IMG/VR virus record: IMGVR_UViG_3300032304_002264
Coordinates: 38,628-102,627 of that record
Reading direction: 5' to 3' (one strand)
DNA: 64,000 nt
Source: a virus
The first letter of the stretch is position 1. Each line of letters opens with the position of its first letter. The position numbers were made by a program, and so were the translations under genes. This document shows positions 10,672 through 58,170 of this stretch, in pieces. The notes under the pieces are model-generated. The model worked only from the letters and a program-made list of their open reading frames with translations. It was not told the origin of the DNA and did no database searches.

Positions 10672-10685
10672 CAGTGTAACTACAT

Positions 10686-36777: not shown

Positions 36778-36802
36778 AAAAAAACAGTGTAAATATCTGC
36801 AA

Positions 36803-37120: not shown

Positions 37121-37225
37121 TTTTATTACTCGCCGCGAGCGTTATAATTATAGTTCTTGCTTATTCTGAATAAGAATGAAGGGTTTTTTAAAAAAAACTC
37201 AACAAAAACTGTGTAAATAACGATA

Positions 37226-37579: not shown

Positions 37580-38713
37580 ATGGCAAAATTAACAGCATCC
37601 CAAGACGTATCCGAATTCTTAGCTTCAGCCAACAAGGTTGATGCTAGGGGCGTTCTTGGTGCTGTAGAAACAGAAGATTTGATTAGTATGACATTAGTTA
37701 CCGCTGCTAATGATACTGTTAAAGGCTACGTCGGGAATATCGGCGCTCTGGCTTTTTACAGTCAATCGACTTTAAAAGGATTGTCGTTAGGATCGAGTGT
37801 CACTTCGATTGGAATGTATGCGTTCCGATACAATACTGGTTTTACAGGCTCTTTAACTATTCCCAATTCAGTGACTACAATAGGAAGCTATGCGTTCGAT
37901 GGCTGCACTGGTTTCACGGGCTCTTTAACTATTGGCAATTCTGTCACTACGATTGGAAGCAGCGCGTTTTATGATTGCAATTTTACAGGAGCTTTAACGA
38001 TTCCCAATTCCGTTACTTCGATTGGAAGCGATGCGTTTCAATATTGTTCTAGTTTCACAGGCTCTTTAACGATTGGCAATTCTGTCACTACGATTGGAAG
38101 CGGCGCGTTTTACGGTTGCACTGGTTTCACTGGTTCTTTAACTATTGGCGATGCAGTGGTTTCGATTGGAAACGGCGCGTTTTACGGTTGCAATTTTACA
38201 GGTTCTTTAACTATTCCTAATTCGGTCACTTCAATTGAGACTTATGCGTTTTACGATTGCAGTGATTTTACAGGTTCTTTGACTATTCCCAATTCCGTTA
38301 CTTCAATAGCAAGCTATGCGTTCATCAATTGCACTGGTTTTAATGGATCTTTAACTATTGGCGATGCAGTGGTTTCGATTGGAAACGGCGCGTTCCAAAG
38401 CTGCAATGGTTTCATTGGTTCTTTAACTATTGGCAATTCGGTCACTTCGATTGGGGACAATGCTTTCCAATTCTGCTCTGGTTTAACGGGAACTTTAACC
38501 ATTGGCAACTCAATTGGCAGTATTGGCGATTATGCATTTAAAGACTGTTCTTCTATAACAGTAGTTAATATTTTAGCTACCTCTGCACCAACTATTGGAC
38601 CACAAGCATTCTATAATATGACTGCCGTTAGCCCAGCAGAAATTCATGTCCCTGTCGGAGCTACTGGATACGACGCAAGTTATAATGGACTAACCGTCGT
38701 TTACGACCTCTAA
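37580..38713 (+). CDS. BspA-type (LRR_5) leucine-rich repeat protein 1
   Basis: about 11 repeats of LTIxNSVTSIGxxAFxxCxGFTGS. Confidence 0.9.
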   Translation: MAKLTASQDVSEFLASANKVDARGVLGAVETEDLISMTLVTAANDTVKGYVGNIGALAFYSQSTLKGLSLGSSVTSIGMYAFRYNTGFTGSLTIPNSVTTIGSYAFDGCTGFTGSLTIGNSVTTIGSSAFYDCNFTGALTIPNSVTSIGSDAFQYCSSFTGSLTIGNSVTTIGSGAFYGCTGFTGSLTIGDAVVSIGNGAFYGCNFTGSLTIPNSVTSIETYAFYDCSDFTGSLTIPNSVTSIASYAFINCTGFNGSLTIGDAVVSIGNGAFQSCNGFIGSLTIGNSVTSIGDNAFQFCSGLTGTLTIGNSIGSIGDYAFKDCSSITVVNILATSAPTIGPQAFYNMTAVSPAEIHVPVGATGYDASYNGLTVVYDL

Positions 38714-48139: not shown

Positions 48140-49465
48140 ATGTCCGCTGAATACACTTTCAATAACCTTGGGCAGCTATCCCATACAGCGGCAAATATGC
48201 CTTGTATATATGATCGCGCAAACGATGTGTATAGACCTGTGGAGAAAAGCGATTTAAGTCTTGCTAATTCAGAAGGATCTACATCTTTTGATGCTTTTGG
48301 GCGTTTAAGAACTTCTTCTCCATTGACTTTGTTTGATTCTAGCCATAGATACGCTGATAACAATCTATGGTCAACAACAAGTGGAGTTAGTGGTAGTGGT
48401 TCATTTAATCAAAATCAAGGATTGATGGAACTAAACGCAACAAACGCTTCTGGTTCGTTCGTTACTAGAGAAACAACAAAAGTTTTTGCTTATCAACCTG
48501 GAAAAAGTTTACTTAACTTAAACACATTTGTAATGTCTCCAGCGAAAACTGGTCTTAGACAAAGAGTTGGTTATTTTGGTGCTGATAACGGAATATATTT
48601 GGAACTTGTAGATTCGACATTGAATTTTGTTGAACGCTCATTGGTTAATGGTAGTCCAGCAACAGAGATAAGAGTGCCGCAATCATCTTGGAGCGGAGAC
48701 AAACTAGATGGAACTGGTGCATCTGGATTTACTTTAGATATGACCAAAGCGCAGATTTTGTGGATGGACATAGAATGGTTAGGTCTTGGATCAGTAAGAA
48801 TGGGTTTTGTTATTAATGGCAAATTTGTTTTGTGTCATACGTTTCATCACGCCAACATCATCGACTCGACTTACATTACTACCGCTTCTTTGCCGCTTAG
48901 ATATGAAATAGCAAATACCGCCGCAACTTCTGGCGCTAGTAAGCTAAAACAAATATGCTCTTCTGTAATTTCAGAAGGTGGTTATGAATTGAGAGGCTCG
49001 CAACAAGCCATAGCTACTCCCATCAACTCCCCAAGAACTCTTGGAACTATTGGAGTAAAATACCCTGTTATAAGTATTCGTTTAAAATCCACTAAATTAG
49101 ATGCGATTGTTATTTTAACAGCACTATCTATAATGGGCGATACAGCAGGAAAGTTTAATTGGTCTTTAGTTGCTAGTGGTGTAACAACAGGTGGTACATG
49201 GCAATCTGCTGGAGGCTCTTCTGCGGTTGAATATAAACTTGATGGCGTTAGCTTTAGCGGTGGAAGAGCATTGGCTTCTGGTTTTTTTACCTCTACAAGC
49301 GCGGTATCAACTAACTTAGATATTTTGAAAGAAGCCTTGTTTAAATTCCAACTAGAAAGAAACGGTTTAACTGGAGAAGCTTACGAATTAACATTAGTTC
49401 TTGCATCAGACAGTTCCAACGACAGAGTTTTTGCTTCTATGGATTGGGAAGAGATCAGCAGATAA
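48140..49465 (+). CDS. phage protein, probably virion beta-rich
   Basis: DAFGRLR, YQPGK, WLGLG.VR.G, terminal WEE; GTGTAA upstream. Confidence 0.7.
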   Translation: MSAEYTFNNLGQLSHTAANMPCIYDRANDVYRPVEKSDLSLANSEGSTSFDAFGRLRTSSPLTLFDSSHRYADNNLWSTTSGVSGSGSFNQNQGLMELNATNASGSFVTRETTKVFAYQPGKSLLNLNTFVMSPAKTGLRQRVGYFGADNGIYLELVDSTLNFVERSLVNGSPATEIRVPQSSWSGDKLDGTGASGFTLDMTKAQILWMDIEWLGLGSVRMGFVINGKFVLCHTFHHANIIDSTYITTASLPLRYEIANTAATSGASKLKQICSSVISEGGYELRGSQQAIATPINSPRTLGTIGVKYPVISIRLKSTKLDAIVILTALSIMGDTAGKFNWSLVASGVTTGGTWQSAGGSSAVEYKLDGVSFSGGRALASGFFTSTSAVSTNLDILKEALFKFQLERNGLTGEAYELTLVLASDSSNDRVFASMDWEEISR

Positions 49466-49486
49466 ACAGAAAAATTCTTTGTGAAA

Positions 49487-49569
49487 TGGATCTGGAAGTG
49501 AGATTCGAACTCACGGTGTTGTATCCCATATTACAAGTATGGTGCTTTCGACCACTAAGCTACTCCAGA
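49487..49569 (-). tRNA. tRNA-Thr(UGU), 11-nt variable region
   Basis: ccata-CTTGTAA-tatgg; TTCGAAT; CCA. Confidence 0.85.
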
Positions 49570-49694
49570 ATTAAAAATTAAACACTAGACCTTTGTTATG
49601 TTTCTTAGCCGTTCTAGAAACGGCAACTAGCGTATTATTTTATTTGCTTTGGCGGGTAATTAGTCCATTACTGGCAGATAAATAATAAAAAAAA

Positions 49695-49785
49695 TGGCGG
49701 CTAGCATTGGGATTGAACCAAAAGGCTGTTTAGGCCTCCCTCAGTTTAGCAAACTGTGACCGTCACCAAGACGACATTACTAGCC
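49695..49785 (-). tRNA. tRNA-Ser(GCU)
   Basis: cagt-TTGCTAA-actg; long variable arm; G73; CCA. Confidence 0.85.
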
Positions 49786-49792
49786 ATGAAAA

Positions 49793-49867
49793 TGGATGCC
49801 CAACAGAGAGTCCCACTCTGATTTCTCCCATACCAAGGGAGCGTGTCTAGTTTTACACTTTTGGGCA
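49793..49867 (-). tRNA. tRNA-Thr(GGU), atypical T-loop
   Basis: ctccc-TTGGTAT-gggag; T-loop TGGGACT; CCA. Confidence 0.8.
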
Positions 49868-49876
49868 ATTGAAAAT

Positions 49877-49959
49877 TGGTAGCCGTAGAGAGACTTGAAC
49901 TCTCAATCCCGAAGGCGACAAGGCTTAAACTTGTAGTGTATGCATTCCACCATACGGCC
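49877..49959 (-). tRNA. tRNA-Leu(UAA)
   Basis: acaag-TTTAAGC-cttgt; variable arm; CCA. Confidence 0.88.
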
Positions 49960-49960
49960 A

Positions 49961-50752
49961 TTAAAGATTATAAAATTTCATCCACTTACGAATTGAATTA
50001 TCTGATACTTGGTATTTTCTACCAATAGCGCAAAAGTTACCATCCAACTCTTCGAAATCTTTTTCTAGTTGTTGTTTTGGAGGTCTTCTTGAAAAGAAAG
50101 ACGATTGATAAATTCGGGCGCACGATTTACATCTATCAGCAACCTTAGAAATCTCTTTTTTACAATCTATACATAAATTTGGTGGGGTAAGAGAGACTCC
50201 AACTCTCATGCTTTTTAAAGCGTCTGGTTCTAAGCCAGATGTGTATAGCGTTCCACCATTACCCCCAGAATTACCCCAAGTTTCTGTCTGTTGATGACAG
50301 TTGGGGCAAATTATTCTTAAATTTTCTAAACGGTTATCGTTTGGTTTTCCGTTAATGTGGTCAACATGAAGTCTGATAGGATTATTTAACCATTCGGTTA
50401 TTCCGCAAATAGCACAAGTATTTTTATAACCCATTTTTAAAAGTTTGGGGAGCAATCGACTATGTTGACTGTAAGGAGAATTTTCTTTGAAAATTTCTTC
50501 ATTAGAAAAGGAATTTTTAGCTACGTTAGCGGCTACTTTAGAACAAGATTCCGCCGTTTTCCCTTTAGCCCAATTCTGACCTAGAAAATGATCGGTTGGG
50601 ATTCTATATTCTAAAATCCGAAATTGAATTAGCCTAAAGTTTCCTCCAGTCATTTTCAACCCTAGTTTTTTAATAACCTCTGAGAATGATAGACTAGATT
50701 CTACTAGGGGAGTCAAAGACTCTTTTGTATGTTTTCTTTTTCTTTGTTTCAC
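49961..50752 (-). CDS. HNH endonuclease with C-terminal Zn finger and HTH
   Basis: CAICG..HVDHING..NDNRLENLRIICPNCH; CIDC..RCKSC; AIGRKYQVSDNSIRKW; likely GTG start. Confidence 0.85.
   Translation of the reverse strand: MKQRKRKHTKESLTPLVESSLSFSEVIKKLGLKMTGGNFRLIQFRILEYRIPTDHFLGQNWAKGKTAESCSKVAANVAKNSFSNEEIFKENSPYSQHSRLLPKLLKMGYKNTCAICGITEWLNNPIRLHVDHINGKPNDNRLENLRIICPNCHQQTETWGNSGGNGGTLYTSGLEPDALKSMRVGVSLTPPNLCIDCKKEISKVADRCKSCARIYQSSFFSRRPPKQQLEKDFEELDGNFCAIGRKYQVSDNSIRKWMKFYNL
50180..50265 (-). tRNA. tRNA-Leu(UAG), nested inside the HNH ORF
   Basis: ggggtaa/ttacccc acceptor; tctgg-CTTAGAA-ccaga; variable arm; ACCA. Confidence 0.85.
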
Positions 50753-50806
50753 ATAAATCTTTACAGATAAAGTGGTAAAGGGGAGAATTATACTTTGAAA
50801 TTTTGT

Positions 50807-50882
50807 TGGTGCGAATAGAAAGATTTGAACTTTCACTGTATTGGCTCTCGACCAATTATCTCTGCCGTTGGATTATATTCGC
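50807..50882 (-). tRNA. tRNA with GAG (Leu) anticodon, short variable loop, C33
   Basis: attgg-TCGAGAG-ccaat; CCA. Confidence 0.75.
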
Positions 50883-50890
50883 ATAAAAAA

Positions 50891-50965
50891 TGGCGGTTCA
50901 TAGGGGGAACGATCCCCTTCCTCAAGATTGACAATCTAGTGATGCTACCTTTACACTAATGAACC
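50891..50965 (-). tRNA. tRNA-Asp(GUC)
   Basis: loop TTGTCAA; G73; CCA. Confidence 0.82.
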
Positions 50966-50974
50966 ATAAAATAA

Positions 50975-51184
50975 CAGACGGCATAATCCGAAGACCGCTA
51001 ACACTTCACAGTCCTTTCGAACTCCATGCTTCGCGCCGTTATCGCTGCTGTTCCAGCGGGGATTTACCCACAGTGTTTTGCGGGAGTAACTCCGCTTCAA
51101 TCGTAGGTTCTATTTCCTCCTACTAGCCATTTACTAGATGGCATGGTTCTTAGTATCCCGCGAATCCAATATAATCGTCTTCGG
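50975..51184 (-). ncRNA. unidentified multi-helix structured RNA
   Basis: CCGAAGAC/GTCTTCGG closing helix and at least 5 internal hairpins. Confidence 0.5.
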
Positions 51185-51323
51185 GAACTTCTACAATATT
51201 AAAAGCTACTACAAATTTTCCATCAATGATACCTTTAACTTTGAAGCTGTATTCTTGATTGGCCGATTCAAGGCAATCATTTAAAAGATCAGTGAGAATT
51301 CCTATTTTTTCGTCTTCGTCCAT
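51150..51323 (-). CDS. small acidic protein (57 aa) within the tRNA array
   Basis: MDEDEKIGILTDLLNDCLE...IGFAGY*. Confidence 0.45.
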   Translation of the reverse strand: MDEDEKIGILTDLLNDCLESANQEYSFKVKGIIDGKFVVAFNIVEVPEDDYIGFAGY

Positions 51324-51340
51324 ATTTGTTATGTTAAAAT

Positions 51341-51417
51341 TGTGCGCCAGAGTTGGATTCGAACCAACACCCTATTTCCTTCACGGAAGTCTTGCTACCA
51401 TTACACTATCCGAACGC
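51341..51417 (-). ncRNA. tRNA-like element with aberrant anticodon arm and no CCA
   Basis: canonical D and T arms; ttcc-gtgaa-ggaa arm; bulged acceptor. Confidence 0.55.
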
Positions 51418-51426
51418 ATTGAAAAT

Positions 51427-51501
51427 TGGTAGGGGATCACAGAATCGAACTGTATTCTTAGGAATGTAAAACCTCTGCATCACACTTAATGCTTATCCCC
51501 C
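51427..51501 (-). tRNA. tRNA-Val(UAC)
   Basis: loop TTTACAT with weak stem; CCA. Confidence 0.75.
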
Positions 51502-51514
51502 GTTTGAAAATTAA

Positions 51515-51713
51515 TTAGTAAATGCTAGTCGCTACTCTAGCTAGAAATGAAGTGTGTCTCATCAATGGGATATTACCATTTGCTTGCCATGCACGGCTCT
51601 TCTCTTCGGTCAGTTGTATATTATACTCACAAGTTTTTTCTCGGTGCATCTCCTTACATGTTTTCTGCAACAACGATATTCCTGCGTGTCTGCTTTCCAC
51701 GCCGATTTACTAA
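51515..51713 (-). ncRNA. about 200-nt tRNA-like RNA with a greatly enlarged anticodon-position domain
   Basis: 9-bp terminal helix; D-like arm GCGTG-GAAAGCAGA-CACGC; T-like arm GCTAG-AGTAGCGA-CTAGC. Confidence 0.6.
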
Positions 51714-51716
51714 AAC

Positions 51717-51790
51717 TGGACACACCTATGGGTAACTCTCCCATTTAGCTAGTTTTGCAGACTAGAGCCTCAATTTTCGGCCAAGGTGTG
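51717..51790 (-). tRNA. tRNA-Cys(GCA), atypical T-loop
   Basis: ctagt-CTGCAAA-actag; U73; CCA. Confidence 0.85.
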
Positions 51791-51797
51791 ATGAAAT

Positions 51798-51871
51798 TGG
51801 TGGAAATACAGAAACTCGAATTCTGACTAAAAGAGTGCAAATCTTTTGTGCTACCATTACACTATATCCCC
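51798..51871 (-). tRNA. tRNA-Ala(UGC)
   Basis: G3:U70; aaaga-TTTGCAC-tcttt; CCA. Confidence 0.9.
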
Positions 51872-51879
51872 ATTGAAAT

Positions 51880-51955
51880 TGGTAGTCCGTCCCCGTATTG
51901 ATCGGGGTATCTCCCGTTTATCGAACGGGTGCAGTTACCAGCTTGCTCACGGACT
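51880..51955 (-). tRNA. tRNA-Ile(GAU), C33
   Basis: cccgt-TCGATAA-acggg; CCA. Confidence 0.82.
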
Positions 51956-51965
51956 ATTTGAAAAT

Positions 51966-52088
51966 TGGAGCGGCGGCGGATCGTCACTTCCGCCTTGCTA
52001 GGGACTCCGAAATACCCCGTGATCTCCTTCTTCTAGGACATTCCGAGATTTAATGTCTTTTAATTCGGGTTTCTTTTGACTATGCCGC
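51966..52088 (-). ncRNA. expanded tRNA-like RNA with Gly-type acceptor and CCA
   Basis: GCGGC/GCCGC-TCCA acceptor; T-like arm; no canonical anticodon loop. Confidence 0.55.
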
Positions 52089-52097
52089 ATTGTAAAT

Positions 52098-52177
52098 TGG
52101 TGAGCCAGAGAGGAGTCAAACCTCCATGCATTCAATTATCCTTTCAACTCGTTCGTAGCGAGAGGGAATACTGACCC
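52098..52177 (-). tRNA. D-armless tRNA-Arg(ACG)-like RNA
   Basis: ctcg-CTACGAA-cgag; 8-nt D replacement; 22-nt variable region; CCA. Confidence 0.65.
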
Positions 52178-52190
52178 ATGTTATAAAATT

Positions 52191-52266
52191 TGGTGGGGGC
52201 GACGGGAATCCAACCCGCTATCAACCGTTTATGAGACGGTGGCATCTGGCATACTGCTCCACCCCG
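52191..52266 (-). tRNA. tRNA(CAU), Met or Ile2
   Basis: accgt-CTCATAA-acggt; CCA. Confidence 0.8.
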
Positions 52267-52280
52267 ATTAAATACTCAAA

Positions 52281-52355
52281 GTCCGCGAGGTCAGGGTTGA
52301 ACTGACATTATACTCTTTCACAAAGAGGACTTTTACCATTAAAGTTACCCACGGA
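52281..52355 (-). tRNA. tRNA-His(GUG), 8-bp acceptor, CCA not encoded
   Basis: ctct-TTGTGAA-agag. Confidence 0.75.
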
Positions 52356-52365
52356 TGAAAATAAA

Positions 52366-52518
52366 TCCCCACTACCGAGATTCACAGAGGTAAGATATCT
52401 CTAAGAGCGACCAAAGCCTTACTTACTTGTGTCGGATTACGAATACAGACATTGACGGAGCAACCGTGTATTCCTGTATCACGCTCATATTAGTTCTTTT
52501 GGTCTAATATGGCGGGGA
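52366..52518 (-). ncRNA. unidentified structured RNA
   Basis: TCCCCGC/GTGGGGA closing helix; CATATTAG/CTAATATG hairpin. Confidence 0.5.
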
Positions 52519-52522
52519 AAAT

Positions 52523-52606
52523 TGGTGCAGATGGCGAGATTTGAACTCGCGTGTGGTATTCCTCATTGGAAGTGAGGCGCAATCGACCAAGCTATGCGAC
52601 ATCTGC
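52523..52606 (-). tRNA. tRNA-Gly(UCC), 10-nt variable region
   Basis: cctca-CTTCCAA-tgagg; CCA. Confidence 0.85.
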
Positions 52607-52616
52607 TTTAAAATAG

Positions 52617-52728
52617 TTTGATTAGTTGGATTCCTTACTCATGGATAGAAGACTCACAAATGAAGTGGCAATGCATTGCGTTCATAGGTTCCAACGTGGA
52701 TGATACACGCCTTACGGTCTAATCAAAA
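52617..52728 (-). ncRNA. unidentified structured RNA
   Basis: TTTGATTAG/CTAATCAAA 9-bp closing helix with internal stems. Confidence 0.5.
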
Positions 52729-52729
52729 A

Positions 52730-52804
52730 TGGCCCCAACTAGAGGTATCGAGCCTCTCTTTCGAATTTTTCAGATTCGCGCTAATCCGTCTCAGCTAAGT
52801 TGGG
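52730..52804 (-). tRNA. tRNA-Phe(GAA)
   Basis: cgaat-CTGAAAA-attcg; CCA; 5' end overlaps the HNH stop region. Confidence 0.85.
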
Positions 52805-53365
52805 ATGATGAAATGTTCCATGACAATTAGGACAAAGATATTCTAAATTGTCTATTGTGTTATTTGTGGGGTCTTCGTCTTTATGGTGGATATGCAATAA
52901 AATTAAATTCCCCATCCAGTGTGACAAGCCACAACATTGACAACGATATTCTCTACCAGCACGATCTAAAGCTGCTTTCAACGCTGGCCTTCTTAATCTT
53001 TTCTTTTGTTCAACTGACTTAGCAAACAATTTGTTAGCTGTGGCTTGCCCTCCTAACGAACGGCTGTTTTCTTTGCCGTCTTTAAAAAAGACTCCCAATT
53101 GATTTAATCTTTTTTTATAGTGAAAAAATGAACCTCCAGATGTTTTTAATCCGAGATTTCTCAAACACTCATTCATATAAGAGCTTTTAGCTGCCGCTTC
53201 TAATAATTGTTGATCGGAAATTTTATGTTTGCATCTTCCAAAAGTTTTTAGCTTAAATTTCCGCAGCCAATAACGAGTTGTGCCAATAGGCATATTTAAG
53301 GCTTCTGCAATTTCTTTAATTGTTTTCCCTTCGGAAATATATTGTTGGAGTATTTTTTGTTCCAT
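52781..53365 (-). CDS. HTH fused to HNH endonuclease
   Basis: TIKEIAEAL HTH; CQCCG..HIHHKD..NN..DNLEYLCPNCH; GTGTAA 8 nt upstream. Confidence 0.85.
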   Translation of the reverse strand: MEQKILQQYISEGKTIKEIAEALNMPIGTTRYWLRKFKLKTFGRCKHKISDQQLLEAAAKSSYMNECLRNLGLKTSGGSFFHYKKRLNQLGVFFKDGKENSRSLGGQATANKLFAKSVEQKKRLRRPALKAALDRAGREYRCQCCGLSHWMGNLILLHIHHKDEDPTNNTIDNLEYLCPNCHGTFHHPNLAETD

Positions 53366-53446
53366 ACCCCTTTTTACACGAAAAGAGTAAAGCGGGGAAC
53401 AATATGCAAGCGCAATGTCTCCAGACCTGCCCACAAGCGTAAAAAT

Positions 53447-53523
53447 TGGTGACTCATGTAGGATTCAAACCTACAACCTAGACGGTAGAAACATCTTGCT
53501 CTATTCGATTGAGCTAATGAGCC
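53447..53523 (-). tRNA. tRNA-Arg(UCU)
   Basis: agatg-TTTCTAC-cgtct; CCA. Confidence 0.87.
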
Positions 53524-53531
53524 TTTGAAAA

Positions 53532-53606
53532 TGGCTGGCCATTTAGGATTCGAACCTAACTAAATCTCCTTAACAGGGAGGTGTCGCGCCTAGCGACCTA
53601 TGGCCA
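53532..53606 (-). tRNA. tRNA-Asn(GUU)
   Basis: ctcc-CTGTTAA-ggag; G73; CCA. Confidence 0.87.
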
Positions 53607-53614
53607 TTTGAAAA

Positions 53615-53689
53615 TGGTCAGGGTTTGGGGTAACGATCCCCATTCTACTCGTTAAAAGCAAGTTGCTTCACCATTAAAGCTTAACCCCG
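53615..53689 (-). tRNA. tRNA-Lys(UUU)
   Basis: acttg-CTTTTAA-cgagt; CCA. Confidence 0.85.
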
Positions 53690-53698
53690 TTTGAAAAT

Positions 53699-53769
53699 TG
53701 GATACCTTTGGGGATTCTAGCCCCTCTTCTACGCCCATGCGTAGTATGCTGTCATTACATCATCAGGTA
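53699..53769 (-). ncRNA. tRNA-like element with shortened anticodon loop
   Basis: D and T arms and CCA present; ctacgc-ATGG-gcgtag arm. Confidence 0.55.
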
Positions 53770-53772
53770 AGA

Positions 53773-53851
53773 TGGCCCACACAGGTCGGAATTGAACCGA
53801 CTATTTAACTGGATTTGGAGTTCAGTTGCAACCGCCACTTGCTGCTGCGGG
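53773..53851 (-). tRNA. tRNA-Trp(CCA), bulged acceptor
   Basis: loop CTCCAAA; CCA end. Confidence 0.75.
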
Positions 53852-53859
53852 ATGAAAAT

Positions 53860-53933
53860 TGGAAGCCCCGCCCAGAATCGAACTGGATTAAGTATGTTCA
53901 AAGCATACGGCCTTACCAATAGGCTACGGGGCA
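53860..53933 (-). tRNA. tRNA-Gln(UUG)
   Basis: gtatg-CTTTGAA-catac; CCA. Confidence 0.87.
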
Positions 53934-53940
53934 ATTAAAA

Positions 53941-54032
53941 TGGCGGAAGATAAAAGGATCGAACTCTCACCCGTGGATCACACGCATGGCACAGTTTTCG
54001 AGACTGCTTGACCTCCATTGGTCGCTACCTCC
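53941..54032 (-). tRNA. tRNA-Ser(CGA)
   Basis: gcagt-CTCGAAA-actgt; long variable arm; G73; CCA. Confidence 0.87.
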
Positions 54033-54046
54033 CATATAAAGAAAAA

Positions 54047-54240
54047 CAAATCAAAAGTGCGTTGTTACACCAAAGGGGTTACTATTTCTAGTCCTATGAA
54101 ACGTAATTCACAATCATCGCAGCACCTTTTGCAAGGGTGTATGTCTTCTTGGAATTATATACATACGAATTACCTCTTCTCTACGTCTAGTCCCATTCTT
54201 TAAAAGGTGGCTACTTCTAAGCCTACTTCCTTTTGATCTG
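54047..54240 (-). ncRNA. mimic of the 23S rRNA GTPase-associated centre (H43/H44, L11 site) with an insert of about 125 nt
   Basis: GGAAGUAGGCUUAGAAGUAGCCACCUUUUAAAGA ... GUGUAACAACGCACU inside an 11-bp closing helix. Confidence 0.8.
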
Positions 54241-54244
54241 AAAA

Positions 54245-54327
54245 TGGTGTGAGTCTGAGGTTTCGATCCTCGCCCCGAAGGAGAAGTTTTACAGACTTCT
54301 TGCTAGAGCCACTAGCTTTAGACTCAC
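54245..54327 (-). tRNA. tRNA-Tyr(GUA), apparent 8/4 acceptor/T-stem
   Basis: gaagt-CTGTAAA-acttc; GTGAGTCT/AGACTCAC acceptor; CCA. Confidence 0.8.
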
Positions 54328-54341
54328 ATAAAAAAGAAAGA

Positions 54342-54420
54342 GACGCGCTGTTTTACCTGACTAAACTACAATGCAGTATTATCTCCGCACCAGCGGACTT
54401 CGAACCCGCCTCTTCGCATC
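54342..54420 (-). ncRNA. circularly permuted tRNA mimic (YrlA-like), copy B
   Basis: order T arm, looped acceptor, D arm; closed by GATGCG/CGCGTC. Confidence 0.65.
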
Positions 54421-54430
54421 AAAATAAATA

Positions 54431-54498
54431 GGGGTATTCTGCCACTGAACTACCCAGAGATTGGAGCCTCTGAGACGGAATCGAACCGATGCCTCCCC
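54431..54498 (-). ncRNA. circularly permuted tRNA mimic (YrlA-like), copy A
   Basis: GGTTCGATTCC, CTCAGAG-loop-CTCTGGG, TAGTTCAGTGGCAGAA; closed by GGGG/CCCC. Confidence 0.7.
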
Positions 54499-54511
54499 AA
54501 CATTTGTAAAA

Positions 54512-54567
54512 TGGTCGCTCCCCGTCATCGACTCATAAAATCGACTTCGCTGGCCAGCAGGGGAGCG
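54512..54567 (-). ncRNA. 56-nt mini-RNA with 8-bp acceptor-like stem and ACCA end
   Basis: CGCTCCCC/GGGGAGCG-ACCA enclosing two small hairpins. Confidence 0.55.
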
Positions 54568-54593
54568 TTTGTTTTTTATGCTGGCATTAGAAA

Positions 54594-54670
54594 TGGTAGG
54601 AACGGAGAGGGTCGAACTCTCACTGATACAAGGAATGAGCTTGTGCAACACCAATATTGCTTGCGTTCCA
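54594..54670 (-). tRNA. tRNA(CAU) with U1:U72 mismatch and U37
   Basis: acaag-CTCATTC-cttgt; CCA. Confidence 0.75.
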
Positions 54671-54677
54671 ATTGAAA

Positions 54678-54702
54678 TGGTTGCGGACTAAAGACTCGAA
54701 TC
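54678..54702 (-). pseudogene. orphan tRNA 3' end (T-loop to CGCAACCA)
   Basis: GATTCGAGTCTTTAGTCCGCAACCA abutting the promoter of the endonuclease gene. Confidence 0.65.
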
Positions 54703-54717
54703 AGTGTAAAAGTATTT

Positions 54718-55677
54718 ATGCAATACAATAAAGACCAATACGAGACAAAAAAGCACCGCGAAATGATAGACTGCATCTGTGACGAATGTGGTTCTGAGTG
54801 TCAGAGACGAAAGAGAGATATTAGAATATCAATTGGCCGAAATCAGGAAAAGCTTTTTTGCTCAAAAGAATGTTCTGCCAAACACTCGCGATCCGAAGAG
54901 AGAAATAACCACTCAGGCGAATGCAAAAACTGTGGAAAAGAAGTAACCTACCCAAACTTGTTTTGTTCGTCTTCTTGTTCTGCTATCTATACCAACCAAT
55001 TTAAATTGAAAAGGGGCAAAATAGTGTCGTGTCATGGATGCGGAGAAGATTGCTATAAGGAACCAAATCAGCTACGAGATAATATTAGTGGGTTACACTT
55101 TTGCAGTCGTGATTGCAGCGACAAATTTAAGGTAAACAAAGCGGCTCGTCAAAATAGAGATATCACATGTTCTCAATGTTTATCTGATTTCCAAAGATAT
55201 TCGACCCAAAAGAGTAAGCACGGCAAAGAGTTTTGTTCTCGTTCTTGTAGAATGAAATATTTCAATATACATCACAAGATTAATGAAGGTTCGGGAGCCA
55301 GCGTTAGTTATCCAGAAGAATATTTGAATGACCGACTGGCCACTTCGTTTCAAGACTTAGAAATTTCCAGAAATAATAGAACCTTTCTTGAATGTGGTTA
55401 TGAAATGGATTTTTTCTTTCCTAATCTTAACTTCGCTATCGAAGTGAACGGCCCAATTCATTATATGCCTATTTTCGGAGAGACTCGTTTGGATAATGTC
55501 CAAGCTAAGGACTTAACAAAATATGCTGAAATGAATCACAAGGGCATCTCTTTTCTTATAATCGACGTAAGACAAAGTATGAGTAAAAAGAAAATGGCAA
55601 TGTATTTGGACGGACTTTTTGTTGATAAAATCCAACCTATTATAGAAAGCAAATTGCGCCGCCTAGATTCGAACTAG
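54718..55677 (+). CDS. multi-Zn-finger, Vsr/DUF559-like endonuclease, antisense in the array
   Basis: four CxxC...FCSxxC units; EMDFFF..FAIEVNGPIHY...KD. Confidence 0.8.
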   Translation: MQYNKDQYETKKHREMIDCICDECGSECQRRKRDIRISIGRNQEKLFCSKECSAKHSRSEERNNHSGECKNCGKEVTYPNLFCSSSCSAIYTNQFKLKRGKIVSCHGCGEDCYKEPNQLRDNISGLHFCSRDCSDKFKVNKAARQNRDITCSQCLSDFQRYSTQKSKHGKEFCSRSCRMKYFNIHHKINEGSGASVSYPEEYLNDRLATSFQDLEISRNNRTFLECGYEMDFFFPNLNFAIEVNGPIHYMPIFGETRLDNVQAKDLTKYAEMNHKGISFLIIDVRQSMSKKKMAMYLDGLFVDKIQPIIESKLRRLDSN

Positions 55678-55739
55678 GAACAGGATTTAACCTTTCTCCA
55701 ACTTATGAGGATGGCATGTTACCATTACACTACGGCACG
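55654..55739 (-). tRNA. initiator-like tRNA(CAU), C1:A72, long variable arm, no CCA
   Basis: ccatc-CTCATAA-gttgg; TTCGAAT; overlaps the endonuclease 3' end. Confidence 0.7.
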
Positions 55740-55752
55740 ATTTGAAAATGAA

Positions 55753-55907
55753 TCAGCTATACCCTTTGACCGAGGGGGCGTATTGTTGTCTCAAAGTTTG
55801 GTATATCCATCCCAAACCGCATGGCGGCTCCTTAAATAACTTCTTCCTCCTCTTGGATAGAATGAGGAAATAGATGGAGAAGTTACGACAACATTAACTC
55901 TAGCTGA
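55753..55907 (-). ncRNA. unidentified structured RNA
   Basis: nested helices TCAGCTA/TAGCTGA, TGTTGTC/GACAACA, TAACTTCT/AGAAGTTA. Confidence 0.55.
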
Positions 55908-55911
55908 AAAT

Positions 55912-56021
55912 TGATCCCCAACCATCCACCTTCTCAGTTGGTAGGAATTTGGCCGCTTGCGGCGACCTTACCTATTTGAACGCCTAATCGTCATTAGACT
56001 GGGTGGTTCTGACTGTTGGGA
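55912..56021 (-). ncRNA. unidentified structured RNA
   Basis: CCCAAC/GTTGGG closing helix; GGTCGC-cgcaa-GCGGCC hairpin. Confidence 0.5.
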
Positions 56022-56025
56022 AAAT

Positions 56026-56102
56026 TGGTTAGGCATGTGGAATTTGAATCCACAATCTCTACATCCCAAATGTAGCGCGATACCAAGTTACGCTAATGCC
56101 TA
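56026..56102 (-). tRNA. tRNA-Pro(UGG)
   Basis: ctaca-TTTGGGA-tgtag; CCA. Confidence 0.88.
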
Positions 56103-56110
56103 ATTGAAAT

Positions 56111-56185
56111 TGGTCATGCATACGGGGGACGATCCCGTAGTCTCTTGAGTGAAAGTCAAGCGTGTTACCATTACACTAATGCATG
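56111..56185 (-). tRNA. tRNA-Glu(UUC)
   Basis: cttga-CTTTCAC-tcaag; CCA. Confidence 0.87.
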
Positions 56186-56281
56186 TTTGAAAATTTATCC
56201 GCTGACCAACCCAACCCGAATCCTGAGACTCAAGGGCAAAGTTAGCCTTCTGGCGAGCGGAATGTCGCCAAAGAATTTTTC

Positions 56282-56296
56282 TGTTTATCAAAGATC
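56282..56296 (-). promoter_or_regulatory. boxA-like antitermination element
   Basis: GATCTTTGATAAACA in the leader of the RNA array. Confidence 0.5.
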
Positions 56297-56366
56297 GAAA
56301 ACCCAAACCAAGCTCACTTTGGAGTTGGCCATCTTGCAGAGCATTGCTGCGCTGGTCGATGTGGGT

Positions 56367-56394
56367 AGTATGTAGTATTTTTGGAATTTGTCAA
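56367..56394 (-). promoter_or_regulatory. sigma70-type promoter of the tRNA array
   Basis: TTGACA-N16-CATACT. Confidence 0.65.
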
Positions 56395-56424
56395 CCTGTT
56401 TTTTGATAAATCTTTTCGGGCTAA

Positions 56425-56453
56425 CAAAAAACCCAGCTTTTTCAGGGCTGGGT
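56425..56453 (-). terminator. intrinsic terminator (attenuator 3:4 hairpin)
   Basis: ACCCAGC-cctgaaaaa-GCTGGGT-TTTTT. Confidence 0.8.
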
Positions 56454-56483
56454 CGAAAGGGAAACACGCTATTCGACCCAAGA

Positions 56484-56546
56484 CTACACCCCGCCCTCGC
56501 AATTCTGCGTGGATTTCGGGCTGAGTGATGTAATAAAATATCGCAT
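56484..56546 (-). CDS. putative leader peptide MRYFITSLSPKSTQNCEGGV
   Basis: GTGTAA 12 nt upstream; stop codon 3 nt before the antiterminator arm. Confidence 0.65.
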   Translation of the reverse strand: MRYFITSLSPKSTQNCEGGV

Positions 56547-56576
56547 TGTTAATTGTTCTTACACTAATTATAAAAA

Positions 56577-57152
56577 TTAAAAAACATTTTTCAAGAAATT
56601 GTTCCATTCAGGACGAATAACTGGAGCGTTCAACATTAACGCTGGAATCGGTGTCGGCTTGGGAACTTGCCCGTTTTTGTCATACCAAGGTGTTATATTG
56701 CTTTTTTCACGATTACATTTGATACAACAAAGCGCAAAATTTTCGTGTTCATTTTTTCCTCCTAAACTTTTCGGGTAAATATGGTCAATACTTAACTGTT
56801 TCAAAGGAAATTTCTCAAAACAATACTGGCAAGTGTATTCGCACAGCTTGGCAAGATCAAACAAAGTGAGCTTTTTCTTTTTCGGCTTTCTAAAGAATTT
56901 ACTGTTTACAACAATCACAGTAGGAATCGGCCATCCAGCGTGTGCGCTTCTTAGGAACGGCTGATCGTCATAATACGCTGCCAAACTGTTCCAAGTGTCG
57001 AGAGAATGAAAGACATTGCTATCCTTATCCAACGCTGAAATTCGACGCTTGTGCAAGTGGCTGAATGCTGCCCGTGCGGTGACAACTGTAATTGGTTGCC
57101 ATGCATTGTTTAAAAGCAAGGTCGTTTTAGTGTTTGCGGTTACTGCGTTCAT
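56577..57152 (-). CDS. HNH endonuclease (McrA-like)
   Basis: LLLNNAWQP, CQYC, SIDHIYPKSLGG, CCIKCNREK. Confidence 0.88.
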   Translation of the reverse strand: MNAVTANTKTTLLLNNAWQPITVVTARAAFSHLHKRRISALDKDSNVFHSLDTWNSLAAYYDDQPFLRSAHAGWPIPTVIVVNSKFFRKPKKKKLTLFDLAKLCEYTCQYCFEKFPLKQLSIDHIYPKSLGGKNEHENFALCCIKCNREKSNITPWYDKNGQVPKPTPIPALMLNAPVIRPEWNNFLKNVF

Positions 57153-57508
57153 TTTTCTACTTTTATTTTCATGAATAAAGGGTATCTCCTAATCTTCTGC
57201 ATCGCAACAGCTCTGCTTGAACAAAAAACATCAACAACAATAGCATCTGGACGGCCAAGTTTCTTTGCGGCGGTTCTTGCCACAACGCTCGGACCAGTAT
57301 CAGCAGCCTTAAAAGACTTGCCCATCTGAGGTATTACAACTTTCGAGCCATACGGAATAATCTTAGGATCAACCGCAATTGTTTTGCCGCAAATTGGTTT
57401 CGCGCCAGTAGAGGTGATAGTATCTCCCCAATAGTATGTTACTCTCGCTATCATTTCGCGAGCTTGGATGGGGGCTAGTAGGAGAAGTGTTAATAGTATT
57501 GCTTTCAT
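57149..57508 (-). CDS. secreted 3D-domain (MltA-like) protein
   Basis: signal peptide; TIAVDPKIIPYGS, ADTG, VDVF. Confidence 0.85.
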   Translation of the reverse strand: MKAILLTLLLLAPIQAREMIARVTYYWGDTITSTGAKPICGKTIAVDPKIIPYGSKVVIPQMGKSFKAADTGPSVVARTAAKKLGRPDAIVVDVFCSSRAVAMQKIRRYPLFMKIKVEK

Positions 57509-57701
57509 GTGCGTTACAATACACGCTTCTCCCGCTTAGTCAAGGAGATTGTGCCGAAATATGCAAAAAAAGACGAAAAGCGTCTGATTTTCAATCTTTC
57601 GGCACTAGCGAAAACCACCGTCTTTCTTGAGCTTTTCAAGAAAATAGTCTATCTCGCATATCCAATACGTGATCCATCCCAATACGAGTTGATATAATTC
57701 T

Positions 57702-57983
57702 TTAAACATAGATTTCTTTTGGTGCGATTTCTGCGATTTCTTCGCACAGTCGGCGGATTTCGTTCACTTGCATTTTCGGCGCAAATTCCTTTAGGCTGTG
57801 GACTTGTGAATAGTAATACACGTAGTCCGATTTTTGACGAATAAACTCGCCGCTCTTCTTGTCCCAAATGCAATCTGGATACAGTTCGTATCTAGTAGGA
57901 TCGAGAATTCTTTCTAAAGCATCATAGCTCGAAATACCAGTGACGTAATAGAAAATGTCTTCCTTGGCGATTTTTATTTCCAT
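57702..57983 (-). CDS. hypothetical protein, paralogue of 35604-35888
   Basis: aligned motif pattern over about 90 aa. Confidence 0.7.
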   Translation of the reverse strand: MEIKIAKEDIFYYVTGISSYDALERILDPTRYELYPDCIWDKKSGEFIRQKSDYVYYYSQVHSLKEFAPKMQVNEIRRLCEEIAEIAPKEIYV

Positions 57984-57984
57984 A

Positions 57985-58170
57985 TTAATAATCTTCGTTA
58001 GCTTCGAAAAATTCGAATACCTGTTGTTCGGTGAACGTTTCAAAAATAAGAATTGTTTTAAATGCGGTCTTCCAGTCGTTGAGAGTAGATCCCCAAGGTA
58101 TTGAAAGAGTAATATTACGATCATCACCGTTTGAAATAGTTATTTTTGTTGGATTGAATTGTTGTTGCAT
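57985..58170 (-). CDS. hypothetical protein
   Basis: ORF in a tightly packed operon. Confidence 0.55.
   Translation of the reverse strand: MQQQFNPTKITISNGDDRNITLSIPWGSTLNDWKTAFKTILIFETFTEQQVFEFFEANEDY

Follow-up and report, generated by a model that had tools for sequence, protein, structure and literature searches.

How would a phage decide when to transcribe its own transfer RNA (tRNA) genes? The question is raised by a locus on the minus strand of a 64,000-nucleotide (nt) stretch of IMG/VR virus record IMGVR_UViG_3300032304_002264 (positions 38,628 to 102,627; hereafter the window), in which a promoter, a 20-codon open reading frame (ORF), and two overlapping RNA hairpins, one of them an intrinsic terminator, lie between an HNH endonuclease gene and a tRNA array. 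The arrangement is a real regulatory element, kept in relatives, and is most likely an attenuator in which the ribosome ties tRNA-array transcription to the speed at which a broad leader is decoded. An earlier note on this DNA had proposed an attenuator of all-different codons that turns the array on when translation stalls. The leader-ORF attenuator is borne out by an architecture that recurs in relatives, a pairing anchored at the stop codon, and a predicted fold switch, whereas neither the all-codon design as a family trait nor, in the window's class, the idea of turning the array on has held up.

The element is compact, and all its parts are given here on the minus strand. The final codons of the HNH gene (56577–57152; 191 amino acids; Pfam HNH_5, HNH, and HNH_4 matches) overlap the −35 element of the leader promoter P1 (TTGAAA-16-TATAAT, 56567–56594), which is sigma70-like with 11 of 12 consensus matches. 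Just 3′ of the −10 element and 12 nt 5′ of the leader ATG lies a GTGTAA motif (56559–56564), followed by the leader ORF itself (56484–56546), which consists of 20 sense codons, all different, and a TAG stop, encodes 16 different amino acids, and has no Shine-Dalgarno sequence. An antiterminator hairpin of 9–10 base pairs (bp; 56448–56482) begins 3–4 nt past the stop (5′ arm 56481–56472, 3′ arm 56458–56449); within it, TGGGTCGAA (56480–56472) can form 9 bp with TTCGACCCA (56458–56450). The antiterminator 3′ arm has ACCCA in common with the stem of the intrinsic terminator (56426–56453), in which ACCCAGC and GCTGGGT (56453–56447 and 56437–56431) enclose a 9-nt loop and precede a T6 tract; this terminator was missed by a consensus scan because its loop exceeds the 8-nt limit of that scan and was detected by a separate one. 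Directly 3′ of it, at a distance of about 35 nt, the consensus scan places promoter P2 (TTGACA-16-CATACT, 56367–56394), which is followed by a tRNA-array leader of ~180 nt (56186–56366) and by tRNA-Glu(UUC), the first gene of the array (56111–56185; found by ARAGORN at default and relaxed settings and by Rfam). The motif, the ORF, the pairing and its overlap with the terminator, the terminator, and the separate downstream promoter are all where the earlier note had placed them; P1 did not figure in that note.

We posit that P1 would yield a short transcript almost without a 5′ untranslated region (UTR), on which a ribosome would translate the 20-codon ORF. If that ribosome stands at the stop while RNA polymerase copies the next ~50 nt, its footprint would cover the antiterminator 5′ arm, the terminator would fold, and the transcript would end at the T tract. 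A ribosome that is late, stalled on any codon, or absent would let the antiterminator form first and sequester the terminator 5′ arm, and the polymerase would pass P2 and the leader with its boxA-like element and go on to transcribe the tRNA genes. Because the leader repeats no regulatory codon and samples many amino acids, such a gauge would report overall decoding speed or aminoacyl-tRNA supply. More tentatively, one may see here a closed-loop gauge of decoding capacity, widespread in freshwater tRNA-array phages, in which, by way of a leader that keeps almost every amino acid in stock, any limiting aminoacyl-tRNA raises transcription of a near-complete tRNA set, to be lowered again once the phage tRNAs have restored decoding; host tRNA decay after takeover and tRNA-cleaving defense nucleases are possible causes of such limitation.

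The window by itself is not convincing. Sixteen distinct amino acids among 20 residues correspond to P = 0.008 against 20-mers from phage proteins and P = 0.02 against nucleotide shuffles, and are reached by 2 of the 59 ATG ORFs of 20–21 codons in the window; the 20 distinct codons correspond to P = 0.047, and an enrichment of rare codons in the leader (1.25th percentile) is limited to codons within the GC-rich stems. The significance of the element comes from the architecture conserved in relatives.

The source phage, uncultured and from a lake, is novel as judged by sequence: its PolIII alpha subunit is ~28% identical to those of known phages, and blastn in distant mode matched the 400-nt region to none of 50,697 phage records. 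An exact 35-nt pattern had no match in IMG/VR, and among 80 loci of a neighboring 3D-domain gene none contained the element. Relatives, designated below by L numbers, were drawn from IMG/VR and lake metagenomes by a tRNA-Glu pattern and the HNH protein, which led to IMG/VR contigs, by a degenerate DNA pattern for the first 8 codons (86 metagenome stretches, of which 9 were true members and the remainder, L093 included, chance matches), and by an HNH alignment that added 80 further loci. The HNH gene lies immediately 5′ of a tRNA array in nearly all of these loci, the relatives being 32–81% identical, and two states can be told apart. In one, the HNH gene is followed directly by a TTGACA promoter and the tRNA leader (L190–194, L202, L228–238); in the other, a promoter, a small ORF, and a terminator separate the HNH gene from the tRNA leader. 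Every well-formed terminator between HNH gene and tRNAs (n = 16) is preceded by an ATG ORF of 20–37 codons that ends 24–35 nt before the terminator's 5′ arm, so that selection by an ORF filter does not explain the association.

Thirteen attenuator elements, with ORFs of 20–30 codons, represent nine diverged lineages; in sequence, most of their peptides and stems bear no relation to one another. The full element is present in the window's group (the window, its L099/115/127 variants, L186, L183, and L184), in L187 and L189, in L188, in L195, in L200, in L217, in L221, L223, and L230, and in L227, L225, L242, and L249. Homologous leader ORFs of 20–21 codons occur in L183, L184, L186, L187, and L189, and analogous ones in L188, L195, L200, L217, L221/223/230, and L227; in relatives a −35/−10 pair equivalent to P1 precedes the leader ORF, and every relative with the ORF also has an equivalent terminator. 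The short ORF that the earlier note proposed to seek in related tRNA-array leaders recurs in nine lineages. Two further loci, L224 and L254, were rejected as members, having no alternative pairing (P = 0.3–0.4) and no tRNA within the locus. They carry homologous small ORFs of 37 and 32 codons (L224:2951–3064, L254:3251–3349), each with 19 distinct amino acids, that end 30–31 nt before strong terminators without a competing hairpin.

The position of the competing pairing recurs as well. For each element, RNAduplex was used to ask which segment of the whole ORF and spacer pairs best with the terminator's 5′ arm, and in 13 of 13 elements that segment lay at or just past the stop codon. Measured from the first base of the stop, this antiterminator arm begins 2–7 nt downstream in the window's class, except in L189, where it begins 4 nt upstream; in a second class (L217, L221/223/230, L227) it consists of the last 3–6 codons and the stop. 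The antiterminator duplex of the window, the best upstream partner of its terminator arm, reaches −16.0 kcal/mol against −9.1 ± 2.1 in shuffles (P = 0.003); in all, 6 of the 13 elements have P ≤ 0.007, L183, L184, and L227 lie between 0.02 and 0.04, and the duplex is not significant against shuffles in L186, L187, L188, and L189 (P 0.06–0.12). Across lineages the antiterminator arm varies together with the terminator (CCCAGC, CCTCTGGAC, CCCTTAAGT, and CCTCTGGGC types) and in each resembles the terminator's own 3′ arm. The terminator keeps its position in relatives and has a stem altered on both sides in L183 and L184; in the inner half of the antiterminator helix, G-C in the window is replaced by A-U in L186, L183, L184, and L187. 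Per-sequence duplex folding was used in these comparisons instead of the MAFFT alignment A2, which misaligns the antiterminators of L183, L184, L187, and L189.

Folding with and without a ribosome mask predicts the switch from antiterminator to terminator that had been proposed. In the free RNA of the window the antiterminator is the minimum free energy (MFE) structure, and partition-function folding gives the terminator a probability of 0.07; this probability is at most 0.1 in the window, L186, L183, L184, L223, L230, and L227. Once a mask covers the RNA as far as 12 nt beyond the first base of the stop codon, the probability rises to 0.95–1.0 in every element (0.99 in the window), and with a ribosome modeled at codon 8 the antiterminator is retained in the window's group. 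The MFE fold also contains a stem-loop within the leader ORF (56483–56526; codons 7–20 and the stop), which may be a pause or timing hairpin; its inner stem, CGCA/TGCG in the window, is CCCA/TGGG in L186, altered on both sides.

Is the leader ORF likely to be translated without a Shine-Dalgarno sequence? A Shine-Dalgarno 4-mer precedes only 7 of the 57 long ORFs of this phage, and GTGTAA, present in 34 copies in the window against 21 ± 4 in shuffles, is the top hexamer at positions −20 to −4 of ORFs of at least 80 amino acids (8 genes against 0.29 expected). It is spaced 6–10 nt, mostly 8, from start codons on both strands, short intercistronic gaps included. Given a genome so poor in Shine-Dalgarno sequences and the presence of this motif, translation of the leader is plausible. 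By the sequence evidence, GTGTAA is a general gene-start signal of the phage that the leader ORF carries; it may be a ribosome-binding signal of another kind or a −10-like element that gives rise to near-leaderless mRNAs. Copies before genes lie at 308–313, 10674–10679, 36787–36792, 37211–37216, and 54704–54709 on the plus strand and at 53379–53374, 32872–32867, and 47350–47345 on the minus strand. In the window's class (L183, L186, L187, L189, L200) the motif is kept as GTGTAAGAA, and in L188, L195, and L200 the ATG lies 6–7 nt past the −10 element, which implies a leaderless mRNA. The lengths of the ORFs in close relatives differ by whole codons (20 and 21; 25, 26, and 27), and the conserved N-terminal part has synonymous exchanges (Arg CGA/AGA, Ser TCC/TCG).

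The content of the leaders suggests what a ribosome traversing them would sense. The peptides hardly resemble one another in sequence from lineage to lineage, and many contain almost all amino acids a single time: relative to peptide length, distinct amino acids number 16/20 in the window, 19/20 in L186, 18/21 in L183, 17/21 in L184, 16/20 in L195, 18/28 in L217, and 19/30 in L227, where 11.7–12.2 (standard deviation 1.6) would be expected for a 20- to 21-mer, and none of 58,744 20-mers from phage proteins contains 19. Stouffer's Z was combined over 8 groups, with the L224/L254 pair, rejected later, among them and L195 left out. It reaches 4.8 when protein k-mers serve as the control, 5.2 with spurious ORFs, and 4.0 when the nucleotides of the ORFs themselves are shuffled; without the L224/L254 pair, a hand recomputation from the nucleotide-shuffle group values gives ~3.4. 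All these values are upper bounds because the groups are of common ancestry. The diversity beyond that of controls which the earlier note had anticipated is therefore present across the family in amino acids and not in codons: all 20 codons of the window's leader do differ, and beyond the group to which the window belongs codon distinctness does not reach significance. No single amino acid is enriched in the leaders, which also have no cluster of cognate regulatory codons. By standard wobble rules and a hand count, the phage tRNAs read 18 of the 20 leader codons, and the same set reads 48 of the 61 sense codons. Two narrower ideas fared less well. That the leader mirrors the array is not supported in the window, whose peptide is without Ala, Asp, His, and Trp, for which the array has tRNAs. 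A Trp-specific sensor, suggested by the single Trp codon in 11 of 13 leaders, was rejected: stalling at this codon would, in second-class elements, place the ribosome over the antiterminator arm.

In L227 and L230 the promoter before the leader ORF is the sole sigma70-like promoter between the HNH gene and the tRNAs, so the array there depends on read-through. For the window's own type of element, a freshwater metatranscriptome contains a contig of 379 nt, 96% like the window, whose first base falls 7 nt into the ORF and which spans the terminator and the 217 nt beyond it. Further RNA contigs map to the P2 leader and to the tRNA-Glu/Pro region; together they hint weakly at read-through molecules that start near P1.

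Several observations weigh against an attenuator that gauges decoding. The window and its whole class have a second route to array expression, the P2 promoter 3′ of the terminator, whose TTGACA is kept in every relative of the class. With its own promoter past the terminator, the array is not turned on by the switch, as the earlier note had it; the switch in this class can only add to array transcription, raising by P1 transcripts a basal level that P2 supplies, as that note also foresaw. The RNA contigs may stem from DNA in the libraries. The terminator is the more stable equilibrium fold in L188, L189, and L200, where antitermination would therefore need to be kinetic; in trp, too, the terminator is the more stable fold and antitermination is kinetic. 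Unlike trpL, the phage element has no 1:2 pairing to enforce termination when the leader is untranslated, so that untranslated RNA is predicted to read through. L115, L131, and L174, natural variants of the window's element, have a G>A change in the antiterminator 5′ arm without compensation. Amino-acid diversity is ordinary in L188, L200, and the L221/223/230 group, and the peptide is under no clear purifying selection, the L227 group having ~6 non-synonymous and 5 synonymous changes as counted by eye, a pattern that a non-coding RNA could show as well. Finally, translation of the ORF and 3′ ends at the T tract are predictions. The comparisons show the sequence features and their conservation, the alternative pairing anchored at the stop, the predicted fold switch, and the breadth in amino acids; we infer that ribosomes translate the leader, that in vivo the terminator acts conditionally, and that the signal is tRNA supply. 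As to the three variants, their G>A change (TGGATCGAA; L115:5539–5659, L131, L174) is accompanied by a synonymous AGC>AGT in the ORF, and they may be alleles with a weaker switch.

The alternative that survives these comparisons best accepts the attenuator as real and places the signal elsewhere, in ribosome loading on a near-leaderless mRNA without a Shine-Dalgarno sequence and not in tRNA or aminoacyl-tRNA supply. Its inputs could be ribosome availability, the state of initiation factors, takeover of translation by the phage, the time of infection, or a phage or host factor that binds the GTGTAAGAA 5′ end. Since the free RNA folds into the antiterminator, the absence of a ribosome would have the same output as a stall; the very short or absent 5′ UTRs, the conservation of GTGTAAGAA at the 5′ end, and the three or four lineages without broad peptides also fit such a sensor. 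A pure initiation sensor, however, would have no need of the high amino-acid breadth that characterizes the family and is kept despite the divergence of the peptides, and we consider this alternative unlikely.

Less probable again, and doubtful in our view, is that the ORF is an ordinary small gene or a leftover and that the terminator acts constitutively to end the HNH and upstream transcript and insulate P2, the competing hairpin being incidental. P2 does follow the terminator in the window's class, the G001 57-aa lipoprotein-like ORF lies in the same transcription unit, and the fold energy of the 145-nt element of the window is unremarkable (z = −1.45), which also makes the window alone weak evidence. 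An incidental hairpin would not be expected to be anchored at the stop in all 13 elements despite unrelated stem sequences, nor a constitutive terminator to leave the antiterminator as the more stable fold in seven of them; an ordinary gene sits poorly with a peptide whose sequence is not kept between classes, and in L227 and L230 the array would be severed from its sole nearby promoter. That the unit instead encodes a non-coding small RNA of ~130 nt, with a single-stranded 5′ seed, three hairpins, and a reading frame as by-product, is very improbable, for although the independent promoter and terminator, the ORF-internal hairpin altered on both sides, the missing Shine-Dalgarno sequence, and the relaxed pattern of amino-acid substitution would suit it, an ATG within ~20 nt of the −10 element opens a frame of 20–30 codons in all nine lineages, the lineages keep frame, start codon, and stop position alike, a ribosome at the stop would in every case reach the antiterminator arm with its footprint, length differences are whole codons, amino-acid breadth exceeds that of the same ORFs after nucleotide shuffling, most genes of this phage do without a Shine-Dalgarno sequence, and no Rfam family matches.

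Downstream of the switch, the array extends to about 49487 and comprises 20 tRNAs by default ARAGORN and ~29 at a relaxed threshold, covering 20 of 20 amino acids; the relaxed search (49000–56400, minus strand) adds Val-UAC, Tyr-GUA, Cys-GCA, Arg-ACG, Ile-GAU, Ser-GCU, and Ser-CGA, which are absent at default. An Rfam search of 49000–58000 (cmscan, E ≤ 1) returned only tRNAs and a weak match on the terminator hairpin (E = 0.17), with no leader, riboswitch, or T-box family. The array leader 3′ of P2 (56186–56366), with a boxA-like CGATCTTTGATAA (56297–56285), a hairpin at 56270–56251, and a CAGCGGAT box, is kept in L183, L186, L187, L189, and L190, and other lineages have a different common core with GGTCCGAAAGGGAGATT and AAACCTACTAA; this conservation suggests an rrn-like antitermination or processing leader. 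Upstream, the HNH family (56577–57152 in the window; L183–L262) is a conserved neighbor of tRNA arrays in a broad range of IMG/VR phages, which is unusual for a supposedly mobile, homing-type gene. In L184 (contig IMGVR_UViG_3300042549_009011, 147.7 kb; also L082/L085) a 57-aa ORF with a signal-peptide- and lipobox-like N terminus (L184:2131–2304, plus strand) lies between P1 and the leader ORF, before which a GTGGAAGAA copy of the 5′ motif is kept. In more distant relatives a TATAAATA(A) motif that recalls the late promoters of T4 stands before the leader ORF and also before other genes (L217:2160–2182, L221/L223/L230 at ~2195–2205, L224:2935–2950, L254:3235–3250, and L226/L251/L253 just past the HNH stop).

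Leaders of the enterobacterial amino-acid operons (trpL, hisL, leuL, pheL, thrL, and the ilv leaders) are well-known attenuators. The phage element resembles the trpL/hisL type in its short leader ORF, in a stop a few nt before the antiterminator 5′ arm, and in an antiterminator that overlaps an intrinsic terminator, with the position of the ribosome selecting the fold, as in the general model of leader-peptide attenuation (PMC1183508). It differs in that its leader is broad, without a run of codons for one amino acid, in that phage tRNAs and not biosynthetic enzymes would be regulated, and in the lack of any sequence or Rfam similarity.

The closest logic in print is that of the whiB7 upstream ORF (uORF) of Mycobacterium smegmatis, which encodes all amino acids except Cys and is activated when any of 18 of the 20 is hit; once the residues of a given amino acid are taken out, the corresponding sensitivity is lost, and loss of the start codon raises read-through (PMC10274678). 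The whiB7/wblC uORFs of Actinobacteria likewise operate an antiterminator/terminator switch, their amino acids set the starvations that are sensed, and their sequences vary widely between species. The phage family samples many amino acids in a similar manner, the window modestly (16/20, P ~0.01–0.02), whereas the actinobacterial uORFs are cellular, enriched in alanine, and control a transcription factor of a stress and resistance regulon, with no homology or synteny to the phage element. The bmrB leader of Bacillus subtilis bmrCD also answers translation impairment in general, and not one amino acid, by ribosome-mediated attenuation; it serves an antibiotic-induced ABC transporter and has no known link to tRNA genes or phages (PMC4191407). 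In its output, the element recalls the L-array of Anabaena PCC 7120, a long extra tRNA array kept low and induced by impaired translation (PMC8421152). That array is controlled by direct repeats over the −10 element and transcription start together with the TrcR repressor (PMC8421152, PMC10272220), and the terms "leader peptide," "attenuat," and "terminator" are absent from the text of PMC8421152.

Full-text literature searches found no published leader-peptide control of tRNA genes, and phage tRNA arrays are currently explained by codon compensation or by replacement of host tRNAs that defense nucleases have destroyed (PMC10264068, PMC11464382). If the attenuator reading is right, the phage gauges translation itself and adjusts tRNA supply, and when and why phages need their own tRNAs becomes directly testable with a reporter of ~150 nt; the element would also be a small, naturally occurring part for turning decoding speed into a transcriptional output. 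Above all, attenuation in the style of trp and the broad sensing known from whiB7 would then extend to RNA genes and to viruses.

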